64,000 nt of DNA from a virus. Position numbers and translations under genes: made by a program. The DNA lies in IMG/VR virus record IMGVR_UViG_3300025120_000019; one strand, written 5' to 3'. The notes under the pieces are model-generated. The model had not been told where the DNA came from, did not search any database, and was given only the letters and a program-made list of their open reading frames with translations. This document shows positions 9,392 to 53,960 of the stretch, one piece after another (the first letter of the stretch is position 1; every line of letters starts with the position of its first letter).

Positions 9392-9977
9392 ACAAAGGTA
9401 AAACTTTTTCAGCTTCAGGCCATCTATTAGGTTTAAGTGTTTCATAAAACTTTTCTACATTAATTTTCCAAAAAGTTTGGAATGTTCCTTTATATTCTAA
9501 CTCTATAGGATCTTCTAGTACTTTTGCTTTATGAAAATATTTTGCCCAAAATAGATGAACTTTATTTTGACTACCTACGTTTCCTGTATGTGTACTAAGA
9601 TACAATGGTTTATCTCTGCCAACACCTTCGATACAAGCCGGTAACAAAAATTGTGAAGCGTGAGAATAATGTATATCAGTTTTTCCTTTAAGACTTTTTA
9701 CACGTTGTTTACCAATTAAGTGTGTAAGGACACAAGTTCTTGCCCCTATTCGATATGCGTCTTTTCCTAAAATACCAAGCTCTTGTAACTTGTGGGCAAC
9801 TACTGTGCCAACAGGATTATTATTATATAACAATATCCACATATTAGCATCTTCATATTTTTTAATATAATCAATTAATATTTCTCTACTACAGTTATTA
9901 TAAAACTTTTTTTTAAAAGCTTCTGCATAAAAATTATTTAGATCTATATCATTATTATATAATTTTATATCAAACAT
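9378..9977 (-). CDS. Hypothetical protein, possible GNAT-like fold
   Basis: Start MFDIKLY overlaps the upstream stop (ATGTTTGA); WILLYNNNPVG...YRIGARTC pattern is GNAT-like. Confidence 0.55.
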   Translation of the reverse strand: MFDIKLYNNDIDLNNFYAEAFKKKFYNNCSREILIDYIKKYEDANMWILLYNNNPVGTVVAHKLQELGILGKDAYRIGARTCVLTHLIGKQRVKSLKGKTDIHYSHASQFLLPACIEGVGRDKPLYLSTHTGNVGSQNKVHLFWAKYFHKAKVLEDPIELEYKGTFQTFWKINVEKFYETLKPNRWPEAEKVLPLFSEG

Positions 9978-23276: not shown

Positions 23277-23282
23277 TATTTA
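23277..23282 (-). promoter_or_regulatory. Late promoter box overlapping the stop codon of the giant gene
   Basis: GATAAATAC on the minus strand; its TAA is the stop of 23280..37049. Confidence 0.5.
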
Positions 23283-26200
23283 TCGGGTTAGCTTTATTGA
23301 GCCGTCTGTTAGGAATTTGCTAATAGTATTTTTACTATCTGAAATACTTTTGCCTTTATCATTCCAAACTTTTCCTTCTTTCCTTATTACTTTTATTTCT
23401 ACACCTTCACCTGGCGTTGTTTTTAGAGTTAAAATATTATTTTGAACTGAAAAATCAGCTGAAATAGTTTCGTCTCCACCCGGACTATCTTGATCTAATG
23501 TGCTATTGTACAATGAATAGCTTGATTTGATTAATCTACTTCCTGCTACAAATACATCAAATTGATTAATATTTGCAGGTGTCCAGTTTAAAACAAATGT
23601 ACTTGAAGAATTATCACCTGTAAAAGTTTGAGTATATGTAGTATCTTGGTAAGGAATAGTTTCGCTTCCTCCTTGATTATATACTCTAGCAGTTGTAAGA
23701 TGGACTTCTGGTACACCAGTACCAAGTGTGCCACGTTGTAATTGACTTAAAACATTGTTGTTCTTAGCAAAATACTCAATTCGTTCACCGTTTATAAAAA
23801 TAATTCCAGGTAATGATGATTCTCTATTTGGTTCATCTAGGCCTGTAGCATCTTTTAAAACAATATTTAGATCATACCAATTAATATTAGATTGTAGCTC
23901 ATACTCTTTTGCACTGGTTATCCTCTTATAATGATATCTATTTAATATATCTTTGAAAATCCTATAAGCAAACTTTTTCTTACTTACTGTTGCACAAGAA
24001 TAAAGTATTTCAATTTGATCATTTTTTAAAGGTGCTTCACTTAATAATACAGTTTTTCCATCTTCTGATAATGTGTAATCAACTTGCGAAGTTAAAAATT
24101 TTCCGTTTAAAAATACCCATGCATAATTTGCCCCAGGAATTTCTTTGTTAAGAGGAATATGTCCTTGGGAAACTAAATTTTTTGTCAAATAGTCTGCTGA
24201 ACCTTCGGGTGCATTTGTACCATCGTATGAAACTCTGTAACTTAGCCTTTCAAACTCATTTATATCATGATTAGAAAATACATAAATTGTTACATCTTCG
24301 TTTGGTATTTCTTTTAAAGATAATCTATTACTTTCTACTACAGTAACACTATCAATTTTAAAAGCTGTACTATCATCAAAATATAAAGTTGGTGTATCAT
24401 CTTTTTCTGCTAATAATACCAAGTCACGCTCATAACCTTGTAATAGAATTGTTACATCGCTTCCTACTTTTGTAAATTCTTGTATTGTACAAACTACATT
24501 TGTGCTATCATTAAGAGTAAAATTAATGCTATCTAGTGGTTCATAATCTACTAGTGTTGCCGCATTGCTTAATGTAACCTTTGTATCAACAAAGAAATAA
24601 TCAGCTTTATCAATAAGTATCACACGCATTTTATCGCCTGCAACACCAACAGATCTTGATGTTAAACTTAATCTGCCATTAATTGTATCGTACACATAAT
24701 TCTTAGGATTTACATACTGGTCATTTATGTAAACTAAAACATCAGATTGCATGATTAATGTTTGATCTACAAATTGCCAGTTATCTAATTCATAAACTCT
24801 TTCTTGTGTAATTGTATGTAATATCGAGTAACCTGCATCTAAGAATGTATTTCCTTTTTTAACTAGCACATTATGACTATATGGTTTTTTGTTAAAAGGT
24901 AGCGGCACTGCACCATTAGCACCAAATGTGTGTGATTTATTAGTAGAAACAAATCTGCTAAATGTAGTATCTATAGCTAGTTGACTATATTGCTGTCCTG
25001 TTCCTGTATAAAGAGTATAGGTGATAATACTATTTGCTTTGGGTGTATCACCCAATGTAATCATTACTTTATCTGCGTCCTCTCCATACTCTGATCCTGA
25101 TACTGATATAATAAAGTTTGTAGTTACAACACCGTTGACTGCAACAACCGCTGTCAATCCTGAAACGTATTGATAATATGTTATAAAGTTTTTACTAACT
25201 CCGTCTGCTGTAAACGTATCGCTATCTAAAATATTTGTGCCATTAGTACCTATAGTCATTACAGATAAATGTATTCCTACTGGTAACAAAGAACTATCAG
25301 AAATTCTTAATATTTTTTCTATATAATCTATTTCATATTGCGAAGGACTCAGTACAATATTATCTAACTTTACAATTACGCTATCTTGATTTGCTGGTAG
25401 TTCTTCTAAAGGATATTCAGCACCCGTACCATCAGTAGTAAAGTTTTGTACTGTAATCATTCCTTGTCCGTCATTTACTCTTTCATAAACTTGTATATCA
25501 AGTGTATCTAAAATTTGTCCAGGAACGTTTTCTTCTGGTCCTTTTGATGTAGTTGGTGTAACAAATCCATCTCCATCTACAACAATATTACCAGAGGCTA
25601 TACCAGTTGCAGTCGAAAATTTTCCTGCTATATTTGTTAAATCTCCTCCAGTAAGTTGTGTATCAAATGTTACACCTGTTGGCGTAACTGCACCATCACT
25701 AGTTGATTTTCTAACTATAATAGTATCACCGTCTGTAGTGTTTATTCCTGTAACATCTAAAGCAAAACTATCTGTGATTCCATCTCCAACTATACTACGC
25801 ATAATTGCATCTGGATTACTAAATGTTGACGAATCGCCTACCCAATCAGGATCATCTAAACGTGTTGGATTTTCATTTACCCCTGCTGTAATAGATTTGT
25901 AGTATATATTATATGTTATACCTGGTTCAAAAGGTTTACTTACAGTTATATTAGCTGTGCTACCATCTAAAATAAATACTTCATCTTCAAAATTTGCATC
26001 AAAGTCATCAAATGCATCTGTTCCAAATTTGCCTCTATTGAAACCTATATTTGCTCCAAACGAAACTGTATCAATTTGTACTCCTCCGTAATCAACACCA
26101 TCCATTAATTGGGCTAGGTCTTTTCCGTATTGTCCAGTAGTTGGACTGTAAAAGAAGTTTATCCTGTCTTCAGCATTTAAATATTCTATATCTTTCTTAT

Positions 26201-29200
26201 ATTTTACAGAAATTACAGCATTTTTTGAAGGTGCTGTTGTAAAAGTTATTTGTCCATAATATTTTTCATAAGTTGCTGTGGTATCTAAAATATTTGATAC
26301 AACATAATCACTGCTTAGTTGTTCTACACTATTAACAGTTATTTCTATATCTGCAGGCTTGACACTCATAGGCCATTTTACATTAAATAAAATTTGTGAA
26401 CCTGTTCCAGTAAACGATGTAGTAACATTCAAGTCAGTAACTTGGTATGTTCCTGATACACGGTCAAACCGTATTATCATATGCGTTGACCGTACTGGAG
26501 AATTTCCTAATATTGCAACTGCTTTTGAATCTGTACTAGCAACACCGTAAGCATCCTGATCTTTCTTTGTTCCTGAAAAAGTAATTGTTGGAGAAGTGAT
26601 ATATTTTTTTCCTGCTCCATTAAAAATTATACCAGTAACTTTGTCTCCTGAAATAGTTGCTGTGCCAGTAGCAGTTGGTCCACCACCGCCACTTACTGTT
26701 ACAGTCGGTGATGATTCCCATCCGGACCCTCCTTGTGTTATTTTGATATCAGTAACTTCAAAACCAACATTATCAAACCAATTACGTTGTGGATACGTAG
26801 TTACAAATGATGAATAATTTTTTATTTCACTATTAATAACTTGTGCGTTTTCAGGTATAATTTTTCCTTGTACTTCATCATACCTAGGAGGTAAATCAAA
26901 ATCACTAATAACTGTTTGAGTGGGTTCAATTTTTTCGTAAGAACTTAAATATTCTCTAATTTTTGTACTGTAAGGTTTGACTTCGTTTACATACTCAGTA
27001 TAACTTTCTAAATTGTCATTTTTAAATGTAACTTTTTGTTGTAGTTCTCCTACATTATGTTTTGCTTTAATGAAAGCCGTTTTGAAAATCCAATCTACAT
27101 TTAATTGCTCAGATAATATGTAACGAACACTACTAAAAAATAATTTATTCCATTCTACTAATAGAGTATCAACAAAAATATTATCTTTAATTGTATTAAG
27201 TAATATTCTTATTTCCTGTCCGGCATCTCTATCATACAAAGCACTATCGTAAACAGCTTTATCAAAACCAAACTTTGAATTGTTATATAATAAAGAACTT
27301 AATTCTAATGTCCCGTTTTGTCTTCCAATAGTTTGATAGTTTACTGTGTAATCAACTTCAGGTTGATTATCTATTTTATACAATAATAACCAGCCGCCTG
27401 AACCTATTGATTCAACTTTTACAATATCGCCTAATTGGTCTTTGAGTCCTCCTAAAGCATAACTACCTGGTACCAAATAATCAATAGCAGTATTTTCACT
27501 ATATCCTGATTTATACCAATCTTTATAATTCCAATATAATCCAGCATCATATCCTTGATTGTTTACCCTAACCCATGCTTTATCTGTAGTATTCCAAATG
27601 TAGGTTGCCCAAAATCCTAATAAAGTAGAATCAGCTTTTACTAATGCTGTAAAAGGCCTCACTGTTACAACTGTTGATTGCGAATAGTTTTTTCCTTGGT
27701 TAACTACTACAGCTTCAATAACTTGACCTAAATTATTTACATATGTTTCAATTTCGGCACCAGTTCCTGTTCCTTGTATTGTAACTTTAGGTCCTCTACG
27801 CTTTGTATCATTTGCACTATTAAATGCTGGATCAATATATCCTCTTCCTGCACTGGTTATATTAACGTCAGTAACTCTGCCATCTGTGATAGTTATTCCT
27901 AGTGTTGCTTGACTAATCTTAGATGTACCAATAAATCTTAACAAAGATTCGGTATCAATACTAGTATCATAATCTCTAGATACTGCTGACGGTACTGGGT
28001 CTTTTTTAGATAATCCTGATATATTATATTCGTCTACAATTAAATTACCAGCTAATACAAGATTTATTCTTTCAATAATCTGTTTTAAAGCTTCTGCTCT
28101 ATTGACAAACATAGTTTGTAACGGTTCATCTAAAATACCATATCTTCTAGCACTACTTACACCTGGATCTGGTACAGGAGTTTTATTTTCGTCATATCCT
28201 ACTAAGCTATCGATCCATTTTTTAATTAATGTATTGCTAGGTTGACTTGTTTCAAGCCCTTCGGTTAATAAATCATATTCTCTATGTAAATTATTTTCTT
28301 TAACTTCTACTGTGTTATAATATTCAAAATGTAGAATTGTATCTTTGTCTCTAATTAAACTTCTACAATTATAAATTCCAAAATTATCAGTACCAAACAT
28401 TGCTAAAAACTTATAACCATTGCTTGCTGGATCTTCAATTAAAGATGCAACCGAAGAAGCAGTTATATTTCTATTTGCAAGAGGTGGTAATACTTTTGTA
28501 TTTTTTACCCAATAATAATATTTGGCTGAAAATTGTCCTGTTATTGCATCATATATATTTTGCCTAGTATAACGTAAATTACCGTAACGTGATTTTCCAC
28601 TTATTCCTTGAGATAGTCCTTCAGTAGTATCTGCGATATCATCCCATTGCTCAGGAAGGAGTTTACTTTCAACCCACTCATAAATGTCAACACTATATCC
28701 AGGAATAACTTTATTCCACACATTGGCACTGTATTCAGAATTTTTTTGATAAGGATTATACCATTTTACTGCACTTAGGTCCCATAAAAGTTTTCCAACC
28801 TTTTCGTCACCCCAAGGATTTACAGTACCAGTATTTGTACTTCCTATATTATATACTGCTGGATCATAATATAGTTTAAAGTCTAATTCTCTTTCTGCGG
28901 CATTAGCTATTTTACCTTGAATAGGATCAATAAAATCTAAATATGTGATTAAATCACTTGTAACTTTATCATATATAAAGGATCCACGCATTTTATCATA
29001 ATTTGTAAAGTCTGTAGCAGATGCTAAAGTTGTCCAATTTACTGTATCTCTATCTGCTCTCAAATCAAATAGTAATCCATTTCTAGTATTACTTGTTTGT
29101 AATCCTATAAATCCAAGATACAAATGATTATTAGTGTAAACTAATTCTACATCAACGGCAGTTGATAGATCTCTTGTAATTGTATTACCAAAGTCATCTG

Positions 29201-32200
29201 TGGCGTAACTTTCGTAGTTAACAACCTCGCTAACTGTATATCTATCATTGAGTAACTCAAAAGTATATGCTTGTGGCCTTCTGTTAGATATATTTGTTAA
29301 GGTAGTGGTTTTATTATCAAATACTGTTGCACTATTATCAAATGTTGTTGCATCAATATTTTTTCCGTTTATTCCAATGACACATAGTTTATTTCCTGCA
29401 AAATCAACTTTATATCCAAATCTTTCATTTACTGAACTATTTGGTGCTACTAATAATTGTGTATTTTCAAATGCAAGTGTAGTAGTATTATATTTGTAAA
29501 TAAAAACAACACCTTGATCAATTCCTGTTTCGCTACTATCTGCAACATCTGCAAGATTAGCTCCAACTGCAATATAATTTCCATCATCACTTAATGCTAA
29601 ACTGTCACCCCACAACATATCTACTTGAGGTGTAGTTAAAATTTCGTAAAATGCGTATCTGCCTTCTTGCTTGCGGTAGACATATACTTGGAATTCTTGA
29701 CTTGTATTATTATATGCTGTAAATGCTAACACTTCTCCATTAGAACTGACATCTATATTTTTTCCAGCATCTATTGTATTATTAAATGCTGTGCTATCAG
29801 TATCTCCGTCAAGAATACCTGCTGAATATGGTAGATAGCCAAATCTGTCAATTCCTATATCTGTTGTTTTCCAAGCATTTCCATCTGTAGGATCAGCACC
29901 ACCTGGTACTATATTAACTTTAGCTTTATACAATACCCCGTCATAGAAAACAATTTCATTTATCCTATAAGAATAAATTGTATTATACTCACCTCTGTAT
30001 TCAGAGTCTTGTGTGCCTTTAAATTCTTTGTTCAAATAGATTGTATCATATATGTATATACGACCATTGTTTCCTTCGCTACGGACAAATACCTGATACT
30101 TTTCATCAGTACTAAACGCAGTTTCTAATCCTATACCAAATTTTTCGTCAGCTGTAGGATTAGATGAAATAAACTGTTCTAACAGTACAAAAGTTGCATC
30201 TAATTGTTTTTGATAAACATATACTATACCTTGATTGCTAAGAGATGATGCTGATCCATCAGCATCTGCTGGAATTTTATAAATTTGTTCCCAGTCTTGA
30301 CTATCTGTATGTATTGTGCTACTATCATCATCAGTTTCTCTTAATGATTTCCATAAATTACCTCTGTCACTAACAATATCATCTTTAAAAATTTGACCAG
30401 TTACACTTCCGATTTCTCCTCTATATCTTGTTTTAACAAGACTTGCCAAAGGCGCAGATATAAACAAAAATTGTCCATCGTGTGCAAACTTAATTTTTTG
30501 TCCAAATCCACTAGACGAACCATGAAATCCTGCTGGTAATTCTATAGTTTGTACAGCACTTAATTGAGAACTTTCACTTGCTCTATTAAATATAAAAACT
30601 TTTTCATCCTCTGGACGACCTACTGCAACAATAGAATTTGCATCGTTACTATCAAAGCTTGATGCAAATTTACCATCGCCTTCTAGTTGATTTGTAATTT
30701 CTTGTTTTCCTGTTACAATTTTTTTATTGCGAAACACGCCAAATTTATTGTTTGCTACATTATCAATCCATATTGTATCATTTTCTCGTAATCCATATTC
30801 GTTAATATCTGCATTTACAAGCTCAGGAGTATTGTATCGTTTTGATAATAATTTTGTTATTATACCTGTAGTGCTATCGCCTAAATCTAAACTTTGATCT
30901 GCTGTAGTAATATCTGCTATAACATTGACAACATTTTCTGTAATTGTATTGACTGTGTAAAATCCATCTAATGACGGTTCAACAAATTGCACTCCAAAAG
31001 TTTCTCCTACTGCGATTTCTGGCGTGCTATCAAAAGTTAAATCAAATCCAGTATCTGTCTTTGTGTAAAGTAAGACTCTGTTTGATGTTTTTACGTGCTG
31101 ATATATATTCCATGAATTCTTTTCAGATGTTACCCATAAAAAATTATCAATTGGAACATTTGTAATATCAAGAGAAAGAATATCAGCTGGTGTTTTAACA
31201 AGAAAATTTACCTGATCTAAACTAACATAACCCGCAGTCTTAGAATATTCTTTTGTACTCCATGTGCTAGGAAACGGTTTTGTAGTGTAATTATTTGGTT
31301 TTATATAAACATTAGGTGTAGTATATTGATAAACTAAATCAGTCCTTGATTCATTTTTGGTATTGACTAATTCAATAATCTGTGGCTCTATTCTAAATTC
31401 TTTCTCATCTAATTGATATTCTAATTCATCAAATACATTAGTAGCACCGTATTGTGCTTTTCTAATTGCCCATTCTTCATAAAATTCTATGCTATCTTTA
31501 TTTGCACTACCTAATTTGTCAAATAATTTTGTTAAACTATTTAGAGTACCTTTATCTTTAATAAATCCTTGGTAAAACTTATATTGACTTATTTCATCTG
31601 GAATTATATTATTAAGATATTCTCTTTTTTGATAACCAATTAAATGCTGTGCTAACCTTTGTTGTTCTGTGTCAAAGTTATCAGTATCTAAATCATAAAA
31701 GTCTGCAAATTGATTAGCTTTGTAATCAAAGTTTGTTTTTAATCCGCTTTCTGGTTTAGAATCTAATCTATTCCAATTTGTAGCATTAAATGTATTTGTT
31801 CCAATTAAAAACCCATTTGCTGAATAGTAATATTCTTTATATTTTACTATATCTCCCAATCCATAATCTTGCCATTGTTGCCATTCATTAATTATAGCCT
31901 CATCATATATAAATCCAGGAATATCTAAATTACCATTCCAATTATTTGTTCTATAACCAACAACATTAATACGTTCTTGCCTATATCCACTTGCTGGATT
32001 GTATATTGTATCATTAAACACAGTTGAATTATCAAGAATTACTGCATGATCTTTTTGCACTAATCCTAATTTTGCAAAATACAGACCCTGATCATCTTTT
32101 GGAAATAATTCTACACTATTAGAAACGTCTCTGTTTATATTTAAAGACACATCTTTAATTGCAGTGCCTGCTACGTTTAATGTTTTATAACCAAATATAT

Positions 32201-35200
32201 TTTCTTTTACACTATCAATAACAAAATATTCTTTACCAAATTTTAATCTATTAGCTCCAGGACTTAAAGTAATAACAGACCCTACCGCCCAATTTTGTGT
32301 AGTGTAAAACAAGAATTCTTTGATACCAAGATTAAAGTTTTCTACAGCTTCAGTATCTCGATTAAAATAATCAAACTCAAATCCTAAACTATTAAGTTTC
32401 TTTTCATATCCTTGTAAAAAGTCTACTAAGATTTGTGTAGTTTTTATAATTGTTCCGTATTCTAGTCTTGATACAGTTTCATTAAAGTTTTTTCGTATAG
32501 AGGCAGTTGCGCCTCCTATTATCGGAAGATCGGTTAGTCTACTATAAAATTTTTCTTCAAAATCATCGCCAGCTGTATGGTTTTGATTTACTCTGAAAAA
32601 ATTATTTTGAAATTTTACAATTTTACCAGATACATATTGTTTACCTTCTGTCCAAAATAAGAAGTTTTCACTCAACCCTCCAACTGTAATAGCAGGGTCA
32701 CTTTGTGCAGAAATAGGAGCATTATATTCAAACACAGGATTTTCTTTATCGTATCCACTTACCTTATAACCTTTTTCAACCCTTTCAATTATTACGCCAC
32801 TATATGAAACTGTTGTTAACGGAGAACTTTGTATTAAATTAATTTTATAATTTTCAAAAGGTACAAATACATTTCCTTTATTTGTAGGTGTTCTACTATC
32901 TAAGACTAATTTAAGTTTACTCTTATCTGCAAAACCTCCTAACTTGAAAGCAACCTTTTGTTTAAGGCCAGATAGTTTTTCAACAAAATTATTATATTGT
33001 GTTTTCACATCAGTAGACATATAGCTGTGAATATAATTTACAAATCCACAAGTAAGTATTTTATTACCAGTAGAATCTACAGTATCTGTAAATTTTAAAT
33101 TAGATAATTTTATTCTTTGTGAATTATCTCCTACATATACTAATTGTCCTGTAATATCTCTTTTAATTCTACTTCTATCAAACCCTACGCCAACAACTTG
33201 TGCAGGCTTATTAATCATAATAGCTTTTAAAATAGCAAACGGGTATTCACTACTACGTCTCCATGCAGTTTCTGTTGGTGTATGATCACCAAATCCAAAA
33301 TTTTCTCCTGACTGCACTCTAAAACTAAAATCATTTATATATCCACTATCTAGAGGACTACTTACCTTTCCGGCATGATCTACAGGTATATGTTTTGTTA
33401 AATTAGGACGTATAAATCTTTTATCTGTGATAACCTTTGTATTTGACGAACGTATAATACCTTTTTCAATATCTTCCCACATTACTAAATTATCTTTTGT
33501 GTAAGGTGCAGGACCATAATTTGTTTCCCACCAAGAAGGTTTAATTGATAAGCCAAGCATTTCCCAAGGATGTGTGTTTGGTCGGTCGGTGTCATACGCA
33601 TCTGTGTATATGCCTCGCCAAAAACCACTAAGCGAACGTTCTGTATCACTAGATGCAAATTTATAATTATAAGTAAATGGTTTAGTCTCAGTTACAAAAC
33701 TATTACTAGTATAATCTACATTTCCTGCTTTCCTTGTCCAACTTAAAAAATCCGAAATAGTAATATCATTTATATCTTGCCTACTAATTTTTGTATTTCT
33801 GAATTCACCACCGATATAATCAAAAATGTTGAAAATTTCTGGATCATAATTAACTTTTATATTATTGAAAAACCTTTTTTCTAATTCTAAAAGCAATTGA
33901 TCTCTATAATCATCATATCCAACTATTATACTTCCGTCATGTCCTCTAACCACAGTTTGTGAAGTTTCGTAAGTAGTATCAACAAATATTTCTGGCTGAT
34001 ATGCTGGAAACATTCCTAACACTGTAGGTGTTTGTGGAATATAACTGCCGTTTGTTGTTTCATATTCATAAATGTCAACTTTATCATCTACATTCAATGT
34101 AAAAGATGTTAAGAACTGCACAAATCCTTCACTTGTAAATTGATAATCTATACTGTTATATACTTGTACATCATTTACATATACATAAACAGCTTTTTCA
34201 CTAAGATTTGTTAATGTAAAAGGCATTGTTAATGCATAATATTTTAAATCTGAATCTAGTACAGTATGCTCAATTTTTTTAAAGGCACCAATACCTATCA
34301 TATCTGAATTAAAAAAAGGCATAGTAGACTTTTTATCTTTAGCAAGATGTAAAAGTATTTGGTCAACTTGTTCACGAACACTACCAGAAAGTTCTAATGT
34401 TTCGCTTGCTTGTATAAAAGCTCTTTTATATTTGCTATACTCATCTTTGGCAAAATTTATAGCAGATACTAGGTTATTTTCTTTGTTAGATATAGCAAAT
34501 AATGGAAGATTTATAGGTCCACTATGTTGTAAAAATTTCCTACCATATTTTTTAATATCGCCTAAGTCACGTATATTATTAGCACCTGGCTGATTACCAG
34601 CAAATCCCTGTAATTCAGGAACAATACTATCTAAATGATCATTTACTTCGCCAAGTGTAAATTCTTTTATATCTTCGTTTAATGGATTTCTTTCAAAATT
34701 ATGCGGAAACTCATAATGTCCATTAATATTTTTATCTGCTGTATTTGTATGAGTTTTTGTAACAATAATATCACTAGGAAGCAAATTATTATAAAATTTT
34801 ATAACTTTTTCATTATTTCTGTTAACCTCAAATGTATAATCTACATTTTCTAACTTTAGCGTATTGTTTACATATACTACAGTTTTTAAGTCAGTAATTA
34901 AACCACTTTTACTATAAACATCAATGATAAAATTATTTGTTTGGGTATCTCCTGTATATTTTCTTATGACATATTGTTTACTTAAATCCGGTGATTTGAC
35001 CCAACCGTTAGTATAATCAAATAATGTTCCTTCTGCATTATATTTTTTCAAATATCCAGTATTAGTTGTTTTATCAATAACTGCATTGCTTATTTCATAA
35101 CTAAATTTTTCTGTTAATAATCCAAAACTAAAAACAATATCACCTGTATTGTTAATATTCTTATAACTTAAAGGAAATCCAAGTTCAGGGTCGGATGCTC

Positions 35201-37049
35201 CTTCACCTACTTTATAATTAAATATTCTGTTACCAGCAAAGTCACTATTAGGATACACAACTTCATCTGAAAAACTTATTCCGTTTTCGTCAAACATATC
35301 AAATAATGGCGCTTGATTCACTCCAGTTTTATCTTGTCCTTTTGTCCACACTGAACCATTATACCAATACGTACATCCTGCATTTTTTGTACCTTGTGTA
35401 ACTAATATTACTTCATTATCCAAAGGCATTGTATCTGTTGTTTCAACTAATGTAATTTGACTATTGCCATTGTATATAATAAATTTTACTTGAAATACTT
35501 TACCATATACCATAGTATCAGTATCATTTAAGAATACTACTCTCATACCATCTGCAAGTTCAACACTATCAATACTGTATCCAGGTTGTCCTTCTATTTT
35601 TGATCTTACATCATTTGTATATTCGTCAATTAAATCAATATTATCTTTTGCCTTAGTTCCATTATTAAATAACTTTAAACCTCTATCAAATTCAATAATC
35701 GGACGCTTACCTCTAGATGATTCATTTAGATCAAAAGATTGATTGTTTAATTCAGCACTTTTAGTAATTACATCTTTGTGAAACCACCTGTTGTATCTTG
35801 CCCATGGATTTCTATCTCCGCTTGATTTATTGGCAACAATATAGTCTTTTGTTCCTGCATAACTTTTTGCATCACTAAAAGGAACTCTATCAAATCCATT
35901 TACATCAAACGGTACTTTAACATCTGAAGTAAAAGTTGAAGGAACTTGTAGGTCGTTTGCACTAACAAGTTTAATTTCATCTCCAACTCCTTCTACATAC
36001 CAAGAACCAACTGCATATTTTGCAGGAATAACGCTCCCTGAAAAATATATTTTCATTCCGTTTGAAAGATCCCAACCATCACTTGTTTTGTATGTTTTTT
36101 TGCCTAAAATTTCATTATCAATATCTATACTTGTATTTTCTTCTATATCATAAATTTTTAGTCTAGAACTAATATTTAAATCATATTGACTTATAAAATA
36201 TAAAGTATTAGGAGCATTTGCAGGAATAGTAAATTCTAGTATTCCTGATTCTATATAACCAGTGTTTACAAAACTGGATTGATTTAATAATGTATCATCT
36301 GAATTAGGTGTAAGTGTTACTCCTTCAGTATACAGTTGATTGATTACTGTACTATCATCTAATCTTTCGTTAGGATCTGCTCCTCTATATAAAGCAACCG
36401 ATAACGGATTTCCAGGAGAAGTTATGTCAAACCTATAAGTTTGTCCTCTATATAATCTTAAGTCAGGATTTTTTGTTAATCCATTTGGATGGAATAATAA
36501 AGATATAGCATTTGCTTCTTCGATAGTTTCAAGACGGTAAGTGCTTACAACCTGATTAGTTTGTCCTCTTACAGCTACGTCCTGTGGACCATCCGGTAAC
36601 CAGTAGTATTCTCTAAAATTACAAAATTTACATAAGTCTATGCTTGGGTTCCAAGAGTAAAATTCTTGCTCATTTGTTTTACTATGATTTTTTACATTTG
36701 CATTGTATGTTTTTAACAAACCTGTATAGTCATTATAATCAGAATAATATCTTGTGTTACCAATAAAATCTTCATATAAACTTACTGGTTCAAATTGATA
36801 ATCTTGACGCTCTTTAGAAACGTCTTCTAGGTAATTGTCATCTAACGTGACAGCTTTTGCTTCACGCTTTCCAACATATCCATTTACTTTTTCAATTACA
36901 CCTGGATTGGTAAACTGGTCCAAAGTACTTGATAAAAATTTCTTATTTTGTGGGGTCCTAAAATATCTAGGAAGTTGATCAACACTAGTTCTTCTTGTTT
37001 TTCCACCAGCTGGTAATGGTGCTTCGCTTTGATTATCATCGTATGACAT
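23280..37049 (-). CDS. Giant (4589 aa) baseplate wedge/receptor-binding structural protein, gp7-like position
   Basis: Follows the gp6-like gene; N-terminal LPRYFRT..NKKFL..TLDQF; beta-propeller-like and carbohydrate-binding-like repeats. Confidence 0.75.
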   Translation of the reverse strand: MSYDDNQSEAPLPAGGKTRRTSVDQLPRYFRTPQNKKFLSSTLDQFTNPGVIEKVNGYVGKREAKAVTLDDNYLEDVSKERQDYQFEPVSLYEDFIGNTRYYSDYNDYTGLLKTYNANVKNHSKTNEQEFYSWNPSIDLCKFCNFREYYWLPDGPQDVAVRGQTNQVVSTYRLETIEEANAISLLFHPNGLTKNPDLRLYRGQTYRFDITSPGNPLSVALYRGADPNERLDDSTVINQLYTEGVTLTPNSDDTLLNQSSFVNTGYIESGILEFTIPANAPNTLYFISQYDLNISSRLKIYDIEENTSIDIDNEILGKKTYKTSDGWDLSNGMKIYFSGSVIPAKYAVGSWYVEGVGDEIKLVSANDLQVPSTFTSDVKVPFDVNGFDRVPFSDAKSYAGTKDYIVANKSSGDRNPWARYNRWFHKDVITKSAELNNQSFDLNESSRGKRPIIEFDRGLKLFNNGTKAKDNIDLIDEYTNDVRSKIEGQPGYSIDSVELADGMRVVFLNDTDTMVYGKVFQVKFIIYNGNSQITLVETTDTMPLDNEVILVTQGTKNAGCTYWYNGSVWTKGQDKTGVNQAPLFDMFDENGISFSDEVVYPNSDFAGNRIFNYKVGEGASDPELGFPLSYKNINNTGDIVFSFGLLTEKFSYEISNAVIDKTTNTGYLKKYNAEGTLFDYTNGWVKSPDLSKQYVIRKYTGDTQTNNFIIDVYSKSGLITDLKTVVYVNNTLKLENVDYTFEVNRNNEKVIKFYNNLLPSDIIVTKTHTNTADKNINGHYEFPHNFERNPLNEDIKEFTLGEVNDHLDSIVPELQGFAGNQPGANNIRDLGDIKKYGRKFLQHSGPINLPLFAISNKENNLVSAINFAKDEYSKYKRAFIQASETLELSGSVREQVDQILLHLAKDKKSTMPFFNSDMIGIGAFKKIEHTVLDSDLKYYALTMPFTLTNLSEKAVYVYVNDVQVYNSIDYQFTSEGFVQFLTSFTLNVDDKVDIYEYETTNGSYIPQTPTVLGMFPAYQPEIFVDTTYETSQTVVRGHDGSIIVGYDDYRDQLLLELEKRFFNNIKVNYDPEIFNIFDYIGGEFRNTKISRQDINDITISDFLSWTRKAGNVDYTSNSFVTETKPFTYNYKFASSDTERSLSGFWRGIYTDAYDTDRPNTHPWEMLGLSIKPSWWETNYGPAPYTKDNLVMWEDIEKGIIRSSNTKVITDKRFIRPNLTKHIPVDHAGKVSSPLDSGYINDFSFRVQSGENFGFGDHTPTETAWRRSSEYPFAILKAIMINKPAQVVGVGFDRSRIKRDITGQLVYVGDNSQRIKLSNLKFTDTVDSTGNKILTCGFVNYIHSYMSTDVKTQYNNFVEKLSGLKQKVAFKLGGFADKSKLKLVLDSRTPTNKGNVFVPFENYKINLIQSSPLTTVSYSGVIIERVEKGYKVSGYDKENPVFEYNAPISAQSDPAITVGGLSENFLFWTEGKQYVSGKIVKFQNNFFRVNQNHTAGDDFEEKFYSRLTDLPIIGGATASIRKNFNETVSRLEYGTIIKTTQILVDFLQGYEKKLNSLGFEFDYFNRDTEAVENFNLGIKEFLFYTTQNWAVGSVITLSPGANRLKFGKEYFVIDSVKENIFGYKTLNVAGTAIKDVSLNINRDVSNSVELFPKDDQGLYFAKLGLVQKDHAVILDNSTVFNDTIYNPASGYRQERINVVGYRTNNWNGNLDIPGFIYDEAIINEWQQWQDYGLGDIVKYKEYYYSANGFLIGTNTFNATNWNRLDSKPESGLKTNFDYKANQFADFYDLDTDNFDTEQQRLAQHLIGYQKREYLNNIIPDEISQYKFYQGFIKDKGTLNSLTKLFDKLGSANKDSIEFYEEWAIRKAQYGATNVFDELEYQLDEKEFRIEPQIIELVNTKNESRTDLVYQYTTPNVYIKPNNYTTKPFPSTWSTKEYSKTAGYVSLDQVNFLVKTPADILSLDITNVPIDNFLWVTSEKNSWNIYQHVKTSNRVLLYTKTDTGFDLTFDSTPEIAVGETFGVQFVEPSLDGFYTVNTITENVVNVIADITTADQSLDLGDSTTGIITKLLSKRYNTPELVNADINEYGLRENDTIWIDNVANNKFGVFRNKKIVTGKQEITNQLEGDGKFASSFDSNDANSIVAVGRPEDEKVFIFNRASESSQLSAVQTIELPAGFHGSSSGFGQKIKFAHDGQFLFISAPLASLVKTRYRGEIGSVTGQIFKDDIVSDRGNLWKSLRETDDDSSTIHTDSQDWEQIYKIPADADGSASSLSNQGIVYVYQKQLDATFVLLEQFISSNPTADEKFGIGLETAFSTDEKYQVFVRSEGNNGRIYIYDTIYLNKEFKGTQDSEYRGEYNTIYSYRINEIVFYDGVLYKAKVNIVPGGADPTDGNAWKTTDIGIDRFGYLPYSAGILDGDTDSTAFNNTIDAGKNIDVSSNGEVLAFTAYNNTSQEFQVYVYRKQEGRYAFYEILTTPQVDMLWGDSLALSDDGNYIAVGANLADVADSSETGIDQGVVFIYKYNTTTLAFENTQLLVAPNSSVNERFGYKVDFAGNKLCVIGINGKNIDATTFDNSATVFDNKTTTLTNISNRRPQAYTFELLNDRYTVSEVVNYESYATDDFGNTITRDLSTAVDVELVYTNNHLYLGFIGLQTSNTRNGLLFDLRADRDTVNWTTLASATDFTNYDKMRGSFIYDKVTSDLITYLDFIDPIQGKIANAAERELDFKLYYDPAVYNIGSTNTGTVNPWGDEKVGKLLWDLSAVKWYNPYQKNSEYSANVWNKVIPGYSVDIYEWVESKLLPEQWDDIADTTEGLSQGISGKSRYGNLRYTRQNIYDAITGQFSAKYYYWVKNTKVLPPLANRNITASSVASLIEDPASNGYKFLAMFGTDNFGIYNCRSLIRDKDTILHFEYYNTVEVKENNLHREYDLLTEGLETSQPSNTLIKKWIDSLVGYDENKTPVPDPGVSSARRYGILDEPLQTMFVNRAEALKQIIERINLVLAGNLIVDEYNISGLSKKDPVPSAVSRDYDTSIDTESLLRFIGTSKISQATLGITITDGRVTDVNITSAGRGYIDPAFNSANDTKRRGPKVTIQGTGTGAEIETYVNNLGQVIEAVVVNQGKNYSQSTVVTVRPFTALVKADSTLLGFWATYIWNTTDKAWVRVNNQGYDAGLYWNYKDWYKSGYSENTAIDYLVPGSYALGGLKDQLGDIVKVESIGSGGWLLLYKIDNQPEVDYTVNYQTIGRQNGTLELSSLLYNNSKFGFDKAVYDSALYDRDAGQEIRILLNTIKDNIFVDTLLVEWNKLFFSSVRYILSEQLNVDWIFKTAFIKAKHNVGELQQKVTFKNDNLESYTEYVNEVKPYSTKIREYLSSYEKIEPTQTVISDFDLPPRYDEVQGKIIPENAQVINSEIKNYSSFVTTYPQRNWFDNVGFEVTDIKITQGGSGWESSPTVTVSGGGGPTATGTATISGDKVTGIIFNGAGKKYITSPTITFSGTKKDQDAYGVASTDSKAVAILGNSPVRSTHMIIRFDRVSGTYQVTDLNVTTSFTGTGSQILFNVKWPMSVKPADIEITVNSVEQLSSDYVVSNILDTTATYEKYYGQITFTTAPSKNAVISVKYKKDIEYLNAEDRINFFYSPTTGQYGKDLAQLMDGVDYGGVQIDTVSFGANIGFNRGKFGTDAFDDFDANFEDEVFILDGSTANITVSKPFEPGITYNIYYKSITAGVNENPTRLDDPDWVGDSSTFSNPDAIMRSIVGDGITDSFALDVTGINTTDGDTIIVRKSTSDGAVTPTGVTFDTQLTGGDLTNIAGKFSTATGIASGNIVVDGDGFVTPTTSKGPEENVPGQILDTLDIQVYERVNDGQGMITVQNFTTDGTGAEYPLEELPANQDSVIVKLDNIVLSPSQYEIDYIEKILRISDSSLLPVGIHLSVMTIGTNGTNILDSDTFTADGVSKNFITYYQYVSGLTAVVAVNGVVTTNFIISVSGSEYGEDADKVMITLGDTPKANSIITYTLYTGTGQQYSQLAIDTTFSRFVSTNKSHTFGANGAVPLPFNKKPYSHNVLVKKGNTFLDAGYSILHTITQERVYELDNWQFVDQTLIMQSDVLVYINDQYVNPKNYVYDTINGRLSLTSRSVGVAGDKMRVILIDKADYFFVDTKVTLSNAATLVDYEPLDSINFTLNDSTNVVCTIQEFTKVGSDVTILLQGYERDLVLLAEKDDTPTLYFDDSTAFKIDSVTVVESNRLSLKEIPNEDVTIYVFSNHDINEFERLSYRVSYDGTNAPEGSADYLTKNLVSQGHIPLNKEIPGANYAWVFLNGKFLTSQVDYTLSEDGKTVLLSEAPLKNDQIEILYSCATVSKKKFAYRIFKDILNRYHYKRITSAKEYELQSNINWYDLNIVLKDATGLDEPNRESSLPGIIFINGERIEYFAKNNNVLSQLQRGTLGTGVPEVHLTTARVYNQGGSETIPYQDTTYTQTFTGDNSSSTFVLNWTPANINQFDVFVAGSRLIKSSYSLYNSTLDQDSPGGDETISADFSVQNNILTLKTTPGEGVEIKVIRKEGKVWNDKGKSISDSKNTISKFLTDGSIKLTR

Positions 37050-51783: not shown

Positions 51784-51804
51784 AACGGTTTGTATACATA
51801 AAGT

Positions 51805-52239
51805 ATGAGTTGGTTATATAAAGGAAAACAAGTTAAAGAAATTTCAGATGTATATGAAGGATTTGTTTACTTAATAACAAACTTAAAAGATAACCGTAAG
51901 TATGTAGGCAAGAAACTAGCAAAATTTAAAACAACCAAGCCACCATTAAAAGGCAAAAAAAACAAACGCAGAGGTCATAAAGAAAGTGACTGGCGTGAAT
52001 ACTGGGGAAGTTCAGACAGACTGAACGAAGATGTAAAAAACTTAGGCCAAAAAAACTTTACTCGAGAAATACTTTATTTTTGTAAGTCTCGCGGTGAAAT
52101 GTCATACTTAGAGGCAAGAGAACAATTTGAAAGACGTGTACTGGAAACAGATGAATACTATAATGGTATTATCAATGTAAGAGTAGGCGGTTCAAACATA
52201 CTTAGAGAAAATTTAAAGGCACATCAGGACACTGTTTAA
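51805..52239 (+). CDS. Single-domain GIY-YIG (Seg-like) endonuclease
   Basis: GFVYLITN...KYVGKK, YWGSS, FTREIL, YLEAREQ, YYN. Confidence 0.85.
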   Translation: MSWLYKGKQVKEISDVYEGFVYLITNLKDNRKYVGKKLAKFKTTKPPLKGKKNKRRGHKESDWREYWGSSDRLNEDVKNLGQKNFTREILYFCKSRGEMSYLEAREQFERRVLETDEYYNGIINVRVGGSNILRENLKAHQDTV

Positions 52240-52244
52240 AAGCC

Positions 52245-52490
52245 AAAATCCAGCCGAGGTAATGCTCGTCGCCGGTGGAGTGGTATCGTCCAACAGGCTG
52301 TATGCTACGAAAACCCTTTAGCTATAGGAACGAAGCGAGGGATAGCACTAAATTAGTGTGATGTCGACGTAGGTTGGGAAAGGTCAGAGCCCAGTAGCAA
52401 AGTCAAACACCTACTTCCGATCTCGGCCATGCTACTCGTATGAAGCTGGAGAAGGTGGAACCGCTAGTAGGTTCCGTCTGACCAATTTAT
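52245..52490 (+). ncRNA. Putative structured non-coding RNA (family unassigned; strand inferred from the upstream gene)
   Basis: No ORF of 60 aa or more; about 51% GC by hand count (52241-52480) in an AT-rich genome; many complementary segments including a 7-bp loop-distal pairing. Confidence 0.6.
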
Positions 52491-52502
52491 CTGTATGAAA
52501 CA

Positions 52503-52577
52503 TAAGTGCTTCGCACTTAAATTATAATAAAAATGTGTTTGAGCAAAAGCGAAAACACAGATGAACATCGTTCATCT
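52503..52577. repeat. Three consecutive inverted repeats/hairpins
   Basis: TAAGTGC-TTC-GCACTTA; TGTGTTT...AAACACA; AGATGAAC-ATC-GTTCATCT. Confidence 0.85.
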
Positions 52578-52584
52578 TAGAATA

Positions 52585-52592
52585 TATAAATA
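52585..52592 (+). promoter_or_regulatory. Perfect T4 late promoter TATAAATA
   Basis: Exact consensus upstream of 52620. Confidence 0.75.
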
Positions 52593-52619: not shown

Positions 52620-53960
52620 ATGAAAATAATACAGATTATAAACGAAGAAGTACCAAAAGGAACTGTCGTAGAAATAGACGGTAACAAGTTCACATGGCTT
52701 GGAGCTCAGTGGAAAAATGTTGCAACAAACAAGCTTGCAAGTAAAGCTGATAATAAAAAAATAAATGCTCTTCCTTCAGTAAAAGAATTAAAAGTATCTA
52801 ATAAAGTAGGAAACTTATCAATAGATAATAAAACTGTTTCATCACAAATGGTTGGCAAAGACAAGTTTGTTGTTACTTTTCAAGAAACAGAAAATGGAAA
52901 AAAAGTAAATCGTTCTGTTAGATTCAAAGATCCTAAATTAGCGGCAGGTGTTGCAAAGTCAATCAGAGAAGGTATGACTTTTAAGCAAGCATCAAAAGTT
53001 TTACCTAAAGATAGTTATAAAATATTAAACGTTGGTAAACTAATGACTAGCTTTAACATTGGTAGGTCAATGTCTAAGAGTCAAATAGATGCTTACATTG
53101 ACAAAGTAAAGGCAAAAGGAGCTAATGCACCTGGTGCCCAGAGATTCTTAAAAATAGTTAATGGCAAAATGTGGCAAGCTCTTGGAAGGTTCGGAGGGTT
53201 TGCTGGATTTCAATACTTACTTTATCAAACATTTGTTATTAACTATGATCAGGTGTTAACAGCTCCAGAAGACAGTTTTGAAAGTCCTGAAGGTAGACAA
53301 GAATTACTAGATGTAATTACTGGATTATATTCAACTCAAGTTATTCTTGGTATTGTTGCAATTTTAAGATCTGCTAAATTAACAAAATCATTTATAAACT
53401 TACTAAGAGCTCCAATAAGGGCATTTCAGGCAGGCGCATTGGTAACAGGAGCCGGAACAGTACCTGCTATTATTACAGCTATAGTTACTGAAGGTGCTTT
53501 TTTTGTTGCACTTTATGCCCTTTCAAATCCAACTGTACAAATGGAACTTGCCAAATATATTGCAAGCACAAGTGGAGGTGTCTTTTTTATAGGAGGCATA
53601 GGAAATTTAGCAAACAGTTCTATGCAAGTCCTTGATAGTTTAACAAACGGAGCCTTAGGTGGTGAAAGTTTACGAGATGCTATTGGTTTCAAAAAAGGCG
53701 TTACTAAGATGCCATCAGGAACTGCTTGGGCTTCTAGTGAATGGGCAAAACTTGCATTCCAAGATATGATTTTTCCTCCAGACATGGAAAAAATAAAAGT
53801 ACCCTATCTGTCTCCTGAGCGAAGAAGAAATGCAATATTTATTGCACTAGAAATGAAAGCACCTACTAGTACTACTACTAATCAACCTGCTCCAGGCCCT
53901 GGAGATCCTTCTGTACCTGGACTACCAACTAATCCAGATGCTCCGGCTGTACCACAGTAG
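52620..53960 (+). CDS. Hypothetical late protein with hydrophobic segments (possible internal/ejection protein)
   Basis: 446 aa; basic N-half, several hydrophobic helices, Pro-rich tail. Confidence 0.7.
   Translation: MKIIQIINEEVPKGTVVEIDGNKFTWLGAQWKNVATNKLASKADNKKINALPSVKELKVSNKVGNLSIDNKTVSSQMVGKDKFVVTFQETENGKKVNRSVRFKDPKLAAGVAKSIREGMTFKQASKVLPKDSYKILNVGKLMTSFNIGRSMSKSQIDAYIDKVKAKGANAPGAQRFLKIVNGKMWQALGRFGGFAGFQYLLYQTFVINYDQVLTAPEDSFESPEGRQELLDVITGLYSTQVILGIVAILRSAKLTKSFINLLRAPIRAFQAGALVTGAGTVPAIITAIVTEGAFFVALYALSNPTVQMELAKYIASTSGGVFFIGGIGNLANSSMQVLDSLTNGALGGESLRDAIGFKKGVTKMPSGTAWASSEWAKLAFQDMIFPPDMEKIKVPYLSPERRRNAIFIALEMKAPTSTTTNQPAPGPGDPSVPGLPTNPDAPAVPQ

Follow-up and report, generated by a model that had tools for sequence, protein, structure and literature searches.

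Structured RNAs directly behind a small nuclease gene are known from the OMEGA systems (IscB/TnpB with omega RNA, HEARO) and from RAGATH-18 with the TnpB of IS607, in which the RNA overlaps the end of the reading frame, as at the locus described here. Like the RNA at this locus, the orphan RNAs GOLLD, ROOL and OLE are knotted, often phage-borne and equipped with variable 5' domains, and they are large (10.1101/2024.12.08.627333). The Polynucleobacter-1 RNA was found mostly downstream of PSSM2_218-like genes (Weinberg et al. 2010, PMC2864571). A further parallel comes from plasmid ColE1, whose RNA II is likewise a large folded transcript with one word, a G6 tract, present twice in the RNA sense, and whose origin likewise has a tandem-G·A DNA mini-hairpin downstream on the displaced, RNA II-sense strand, a type of hairpin that is not specific to origins. 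The ColE1 hairpin is the site of primosome assembly. Pairing of rG with template dC is essential for the ColE1 R-loop, and the origins of phage T4, such as oriF and oriG, are also R-loop primed (PMC4412123).

The window, i.e. the whole stretch of 64,000 nt that was analysed, contained a T4-like phage gene set including a late sigma factor, gp47, gp46, baseplate genes and the portal. The order at the locus was gp47, gp46, an ORF of 82 aa, a nuclease of 144 aa, a gap of 380 nt and an orphan gene of 446 aa, 3' of which lay baseplate genes (convergent) and the portal (Table 1). A protein identical to the nuclease was found on marine contigs of up to 178 kb, and complete genomes of related phages measured 347–367 kb. 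A preliminary description of this DNA had singled out the gap as the sole long non-coding one, and this was confirmed: the rival gap at 9392–9969 holds an ORF of 219 aa. The GC content over 52241–52480 was 51.2% vs 33.2% for the window, and all motifs listed in that description were found in place. It had also reported a late-like box before the nuclease gene. The box is present, but at least 10 different words stood at this place across 41 relatives, in contrast to the fixed word TAAATA found 5' of the structural genes in the window.

Table 1. Coordinates of the features at the locus, numbered from the first nucleotide of the window.
Feature	Position	Strand	Basis
Late-promoter-like box, degenerate, weak	51793..51800	+	sequence; word varies among relatives
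Minimal SegE-type GIY-YIG nuclease, 144 aa	51805..52239	+	PF19835 profile, invariant residues, predicted model
Twin-box structured RNA, short 5'-domain type, ~280 nt (putative ends)	52225..~52502	+	conservation
Swappable 5' domain, closing stem 52226–29/52288–91	52226..52291	+	compensatory change 12 vs 9; alignments
Core: hairpin 52314–41, variable stem 52345–59, helices 52369–74/52409–14 and 52375–78/52390–93	52314..52418	+	covariation, pairing
Candidate long-range pseudoknot 52382–88/52477–83 with hairpin 52457–75	52382..52483	+	pairing in relatives
Box 1, 7-nt word 52438–44 and two flanking positions	52438..52446	+	identity covariation; directional wobble
Box 2, same 7-nt word 52493–99, 3' end of conserved fold	52493..52501	+	55 nt after box 1
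Perfect hairpin, GAA triloop closed by C-G on minus strand (DNA mini-hairpin type)	52503..52519		sequence
Tandem G·A hairpin, formable on plus strand only	52535..52558	+	relatives; ColE1 comparison
Third hairpin	52559..52577		C-GNA-G triloop on RNA-sense strand in most relatives
T4-type late promoter box for 446-aa orphan gene at 52620	52585..52592	+	sequence; same box before structural genes

The nuclease matched the PF19835 profile with an E-value of 3.5e-34 (118 bits vs a cut-off of 25), and no extra domain beyond the GIY-YIG catalytic fold was found in its 144 aa, in agreement with the earlier view of a catalytic domain alone. Residues Y22, Y33, G35, E103 and N120 were invariant among its relatives, and residues 40–60 formed a basic beta-hairpin. 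The predicted model (pLDDT 91) was nearest to the catalytic domain of I-TevI (Z 8.3), followed by UvrC (5.6) and T4 EndoII (5.3); Foldseek gave no match at E 0.001, and a PDB sequence search with this nuclease and with the PD-(D/E)XK nuclease introduced below gave no relative. Fold and catalytic Tyr/Glu/Asn are common to T4 EndoII, the N-terminal domain of UvrC, Slx1 and the Seg family (PF19835, PHROG 447). A size limited to the catalytic domain is ordinary, T4 EndoII having 134 residues in PDB 2wsh, whereas the long basic beta-hairpin and the fixed locus set the window nuclease apart from minimal GIY-YIG and Seg enzymes. Relatives were present in 762 phage records, and the slot behind gp46 was constant among relatives at 48–90% identity. 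A homing endonuclease gene was rejected on account of this fixed slot, the lack of an extra domain and the lack of an intron match. The window nuclease swaps with a RusA/Hjc-like resolvase and does not behave like a mobile homing gene. It is probably a branched-DNA or Holliday-junction nuclease of the gp47-gp46 recombination cluster, exchangeable with a resolvase, and would then be neither an RNA-guided enzyme nor a recent mobile insertion. PHROG 447 has the look of a non-orthologous substitute for such a Holliday-junction resolvase. This PHROG and many GenBank phage records carry the label 'NAD synthetase', though the family is a GIY-YIG nuclease.

The preliminary description had placed a structured RNA of uncatalogued type in the gap, and its reality was borne out by relatives. 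Among 80 viral loci collected via the nuclease protein, a conserved GC-rich element lay behind the gene wherever the sequence sufficed, and the element was seen again in about 300 distinct relatives, with covarying, G·U-tolerant stems. When the window and ten relatives were compared with Rfam, no match was obtained by gathering score or by E-value. Since the single sequence folded no better than its shuffles on either strand (z 0.05), the case for structure is comparative. Over seven helices in 68 window-type sequences 98.5% of the cells were paired, against at most 45% when the partners were slid, and 84 double changes were counted vs 31 in shuffles. The one-sided changes in these sequences were nearly all G·U, and the RNA strand is therefore the plus strand. 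The sister subfamily gave 184 double changes vs 75, and GNRA loops in the core numbered 91 on the plus strand vs 13 on the minus strand. In phages the RNA was single-copy and kept one position, downstream of gp47-gp46 and a small nuclease; a search of cultured phages gave no match. We concluded that it is an independent structured RNA gene of an uncultured clade of aquatic T4-like giant phages.

The start of the RNA had been set at the nuclease stop codon. The closing stem of the 5' domain begins within the ORF, however, and the RNA shares five codons with the 3' end of the nuclease gene. This 5' domain is modular: it is short in the window, and longer or replaced by a Polynucleobacter-1 domain in other relatives. 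The helices 52369–74/52409–14, 52375–78/52390–93 and 52457–62/52470–75 were 100% paired in 68 relatives, where the gathering of most loci by fixed patterns masks variation in 52369–92; the hairpins 52314–41 and 52345–59 showed covariation on both sides. All five had been proposed before. A second pseudoknot had been missed, in which the loop 52327–30 pairs with 52415–18; it was invariant in the window type, and its counterpart in the sister subfamily gave the strongest covariation (MI-APC 0.93).

For the long-range pseudoknot 52382–88/52477–83, which the preliminary description had put forward, pairing was 99%, but the wobble changes were one-sided and no double change occurred. No compensatory variant at its central U was found in 241 million metagenome records; a targeted search elsewhere along the pseudoknot gave wobble or broken variants, and in divergent members the pairing was disrupted or missing. 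The corresponding loop of the sister subfamily covaried instead with an upstream strand. The pseudoknot is a candidate compatible with these alignments. Two further pairings did not hold up: 52393–99/52430–36 was not conserved (48% paired), and for the 5'-end switch with 52422–27 both partners were present in only 2 of 21 relatives.

The hallmark of the RNA, overlooked in the earlier description, is a pair of 7-nt boxes. In 237 of 241 unique cores, counted with anchors blind to identity, the two boxes were identical, and they comprised 22 words. On the nuclease tree box 1 changed 34 times, and positions 0–5 changed on the same branches in both boxes. Mutual information likewise showed that the box columns covary by identity, and no column inside the RNA paired or covaried with the boxes as a complement. 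The word is free to change provided that both copies agree. No third copy or complement tracked the word within the RNA or across several kb on its flanks, nor was the own word enriched in the flanks (1.77 vs 1.72 per 10 kb). The boxes sit in similar 20-nt units, 48–68 nt apart across loci. Box 2 is mostly unpaired in the constrained fold, and box 1 of the window can form a local hairpin that is not conserved. The literature searched contained no account of the twin boxes, and the viral candidates of Fremin et al. 2023 (PMC10690425) may include parts of the RNA.

The few mismatches between the boxes ran in one direction. At position +8, U in box 1 with C in box 2 was found in 49 cores and the reverse in 1 (39 vs 1 tree patches), where 69 and 30 were expected from the marginals; C in box 1 was nearly always accompanied by C in box 2. 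All three transition mismatches within the word ran in the same direction. A hybrid of at least 9 bp between box 1 and the complement of box 2 was possible in 230 of 298 cores, vs 21 of 298 in the opposite direction; the lengths in the window itself were 9 and 7. The direction rests mainly on +8, and the relatives are not independent. The asymmetry at +7 was uninformative, G being almost fixed there in box 1.

Three conserved hairpins after 52502, also missed before, follow box 2. The first, 52503–52519, also scores as a minus-strand terminator; terminator scoring of the convergent strand picked out two of these hairpins. The tandem-G·A hairpin was found on the plus strand in 127 of 196 relatives and on the minus strand in 2, against a background of 0.004 per 190 nt. 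The loop of the third hairpin in the window is an exception to the C-GNA-G type. The kind of loop shifts at box 2, from GNRA inside the RNA to C-GNA-G triloops after it (120 on the plus strand, 51 on the minus strand). Such mini-hairpins are far more stable as DNA than as RNA and are found at phage and plasmid priming sites (PMC13037366). Long mini-hairpins occurred 2–3 times per genome, and in 3 of 3 genomes read the longest stood directly behind the RNA, on the RNA-sense strand.

A part of this family has been seen before. PSSM2_218 of P-SSM2 belongs to the window nuclease family (41% identity, E 1e-21), so an RNA downstream of this gene family had been recognised as early as 2010, and the flanking sequences of that study already contain twin words (PMC2864571). 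The Polynucleobacter-1 model RF01718 covers the optional 5' domain only; its description includes neither the 3' core nor the twin boxes. At 37 bits or more, this model matched neither the window RNA nor five close relatives. Phage relatives that did match it at 103–118 bits carried a twin-box 3' domain, and a model of that domain gave the window RNA as its best match but a weak one, at 18.8 bits (E ~0.002–0.02; next 7.9). The reverse search gave 13.2 bits on one phage locus (L028) and none on bacterial members; by eye the architecture was the same, with twin boxes. Judged by these alignments and model scores, the window RNA is not a strict member of RF01718, and appears to be a short variant of a wider undescribed family.

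A related RNA, here called D-type, stood behind the PD-(D/E)XK gene at loci L360, L379, L381, L387, L399 and L411. It has a related 5' domain, another core and two boxes that are alike though not strictly identical, and the RNA models R1 and R2 gave no match to the D-type members tested.

The RNA was also found on integrated, satellite-like elements of freshwater Burkholderiales. In Polynucleobacter and Oxalobacteraceae (L600:4697-12068, L601–L604) a conserved element of 8–11 kb carried the twin-box RNA together with an integrase, a second small tyrosine recombinase, a T4-type clamp-loader-like ATPase and DUF6641. The islands lay near tRNA genes in 2 of 5 regions read, and one genome held two island copies with different twin words. 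Among ten island proteins scanned, no Rep, primase, helicase or nuclease was recognisable. Two recombinases and a clamp-loader ATPase without a recognisable initiator are as expected of a satellite with a helper-dependent origin, and the element has the appearance of a so far undescribed satellite of the giant phages. Polynucleobacter, a host genus of the islands, can be cultured.

Two words that must match and yet vary point to pairing between one word and the complement of its twin. Since no complement was found inside the RNA or in the flanks, the only local complement of box 1 that would require identity is the other strand at box 2. The bias at +8 fits box 1 as RNA against the complement of box 2, because U tolerates G and C does not tolerate A. 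Our preferred reading, held tentatively and as somewhat short of an even prospect, is an R-loop-forming RNA that acts in cis like ColE1 RNA II. Once RNA polymerase has passed box 2, the folded nascent RNA would present box 1, which would form ~9 bp with the template DNA at box 2 and so seed a persistent RNA-DNA hybrid. The displaced plus strand would fold just downstream into the DNA mini-hairpins, which would be loading signals. The R-loop could then prime replication, or mark where packaging or recombination is to occur. Processing of the branched product may fall to a structure-specific nuclease of either fold, with no guidance from the RNA. By analogy, the RNA may work like RNA II without being related to it: the window RNA had no Rfam match, models R1 and R2 did not match the ColE1 origin, the word is variable unlike the G tract, the spacing is ~55 nt vs ~250, and the host is a giant phage. 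What is new here are the one-directional mismatches, the change from RNA-type to DNA-type loops at box 2, and the parallel to ColE1.

The data lean to a replication RNA, an option that the preliminary description had listed. Several observations speak against an R-loop in cis. In three large genomes the GC skew tracked the coding strand, with no origin signature at the RNA, and was uninformative as evidence on an origin. The near-perfect identity of the words is stricter than a wobble-tolerant hybrid needs, box 1 of the window can fold locally, and the terminator scores of two downstream hairpins offer them another role. Moreover, the D-type RNA has non-strict boxes in the same slot, and the late-type box before the island RNAs contrasts with the middle promoters of T4 origins. 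More doubtful, though conceivable, is the extended proposal of a new class of self-targeting cis RNA, in which a reprogrammable box of 7–9 nt invades its own template and sets an R-loop as origin or packaging mark of giant phages, the upstream branched-DNA nuclease processes the product, and satellites copy the element to hijack helper replication. If true, an RNA-primed origin would have evolved independently of ColE1, and the orphan Polynucleobacter-1 motif would have a function. The locus bears on how uncultured giant T4-like phages start replication and packaging and on orphan phage RNAs in general, and two boxes that must match provide a sharp genetic handle.

The strongest rival, which we regard as rather unlikely, is a free trans-acting large RNA, a scaffold or decoy of the GOLLD/ROOL kind or a sponge of the CsrB kind, whose boxes grip two copies of an outside partner (a dimeric protein, or an RNA of host or phage) and evolve along with it. 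The placement of the boxes in similar 20-nt units and their strict identity agree with it, as does the rapid, arms-race-like switching of words between near-identical phages; many words also contain AUG or a stop codon. A symmetric partner should however allow C/U and U/C equally at +8, where 1 and 49 were seen, no partner was found in the flanks, and the DNA-type hairpins that always follow box 2 are left unexplained. Compared with GOLLD, ROOL and OLE, the window RNA is smaller, lacks tRNA context, carries twin boxes and has no Rfam similarity.

The RNA could also be a self-processing ribozyme, with the boxes docking in turn in one site so that cleavage, ligation or circularisation of the RNA takes place between them, or so that the RNA nicks the DNA strand complementary to box 2. 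Its highly conserved, multiply knotted core with many invariant unpaired bases, and the mutually exclusive pairings around 52476–83, would suit a catalyst. We consider this improbable, as no Rfam ribozyme or intron matched, no gene is interrupted and no internal guide column covaries with the boxes. A group I or II intron was likewise rejected, the flanking ORFs being whole and unrelated and Rfam giving no match.

The preliminary description favoured an RNA that serves the GIY-YIG nuclease as guide, partner or scaffold, like omega RNA with IscB/TnpB. At first sight the association is tight: at window-type phage loci found by the RNA alone, the GIY-YIG gene was upstream on the same strand in 113 of 113 cases, the RNA overlaps the ORF end, the nuclease carries a basic hairpin, and phage copies of the RNA were always preceded by some small nuclease. 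At 7 of 61 sister-type loci, however, the GIY-YIG gene was missing and a PD-(D/E)XK protein (PF24608, RusA-like resolvase family) occupied the slot. The same box words occurred with both nucleases, and complete genomes had one nuclease or the other in mutual exclusion (the PF24608 search had no positive control). Among 80 loci collected via the PD-(D/E)XK protein, 41 had the same twin-box RNA and 22 a related RNA, and at some loci an ORF was inserted between nuclease gene and RNA. Nine bacterial island loci had the RNA without any nuclease. Conversely, cultured phages such as Melnitz (70% identity) had the nuclease but too little space behind it for the RNA, and gave no model match, within the limited sensitivity of the models across types. 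Words switched between nucleases 96–98% identical with no recurring residue change, and neither a variable guide-like flank nor, in the flanks searched, a target was found. The RNA thus occurs independently of the nuclease, in phages and on islands, and the nuclease beside it is an exchangeable neighbour; that the RNA serves it as partner, guide or scaffold is quite improbable. An OMEGA system was rejected, the fold being GIY-YIG rather than RuvC/HNH and the RNA not being tied to one nuclease family; in contrast to OMEGA, the RNA has no recognisable variable guide flank, lies in no transposon and is a single fixed copy.

Still less probable is a reading in which the whole element acts as folded single-stranded DNA, an origin, packaging or recombination site with the boxes as strand-exchange cores. 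Tyrosine recombinases need identical overlap regions of 6–8 bp, and such enzymes adjoin the element in the islands; the DNA-type hairpins after box 2 fit as well. The core, however, uses GNRA tetraloops and G·U pairs on one strand, no recombinase stands beside the element in phage loci, and the boxes are only 48–68 nt apart. Template-jumping repeats for rolling synthesis, as with ACA-1/ACA-2 of DRT2, which also requires two identical words in a knotted RNA (10.1101/2024.05.08.593200), are hardly credible and a DRT2-type template RNA was rejected, as reverse transcriptase (RVT_1, PF00078) was absent from five genomes (three complete, two partial; control positive) and a jump from box 1 to box 2 needs a wobble direction opposite to that seen.

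Some further observations were made at and around the locus. Endonuclease VII was found in 1 of 5 genomes. A complete genome that also has the PD-(D/E)XK resolvase holds two adjoining endonuclease VII-like genes (G009:C1:325548-326741). The orphan gene at 52620–53960 was hypervariable in sequence and length between close relatives, began with an MK..EI-type motif and had a late promoter upstream; Pfam and PHROG gave no match, and the product is probably a virion protein. Within the structural genes, an ORF of 4,589 aa occupied 23280–37049 of the window on the minus strand. Fifteen of the 80 contigs stopped at most 405 nt past the nuclease stop codon, about three times the expected share; either the assemblies broke at a conserved stretch common to these contigs, or the discontinuity is real. 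The variable stems (L003, L012, L014, L023, L055, L077) often had long palindromic inserts that bear tandem G·A loops and GNA triloops. These inserts were common to distant phages and are possibly small mobile palindromic DNA elements.
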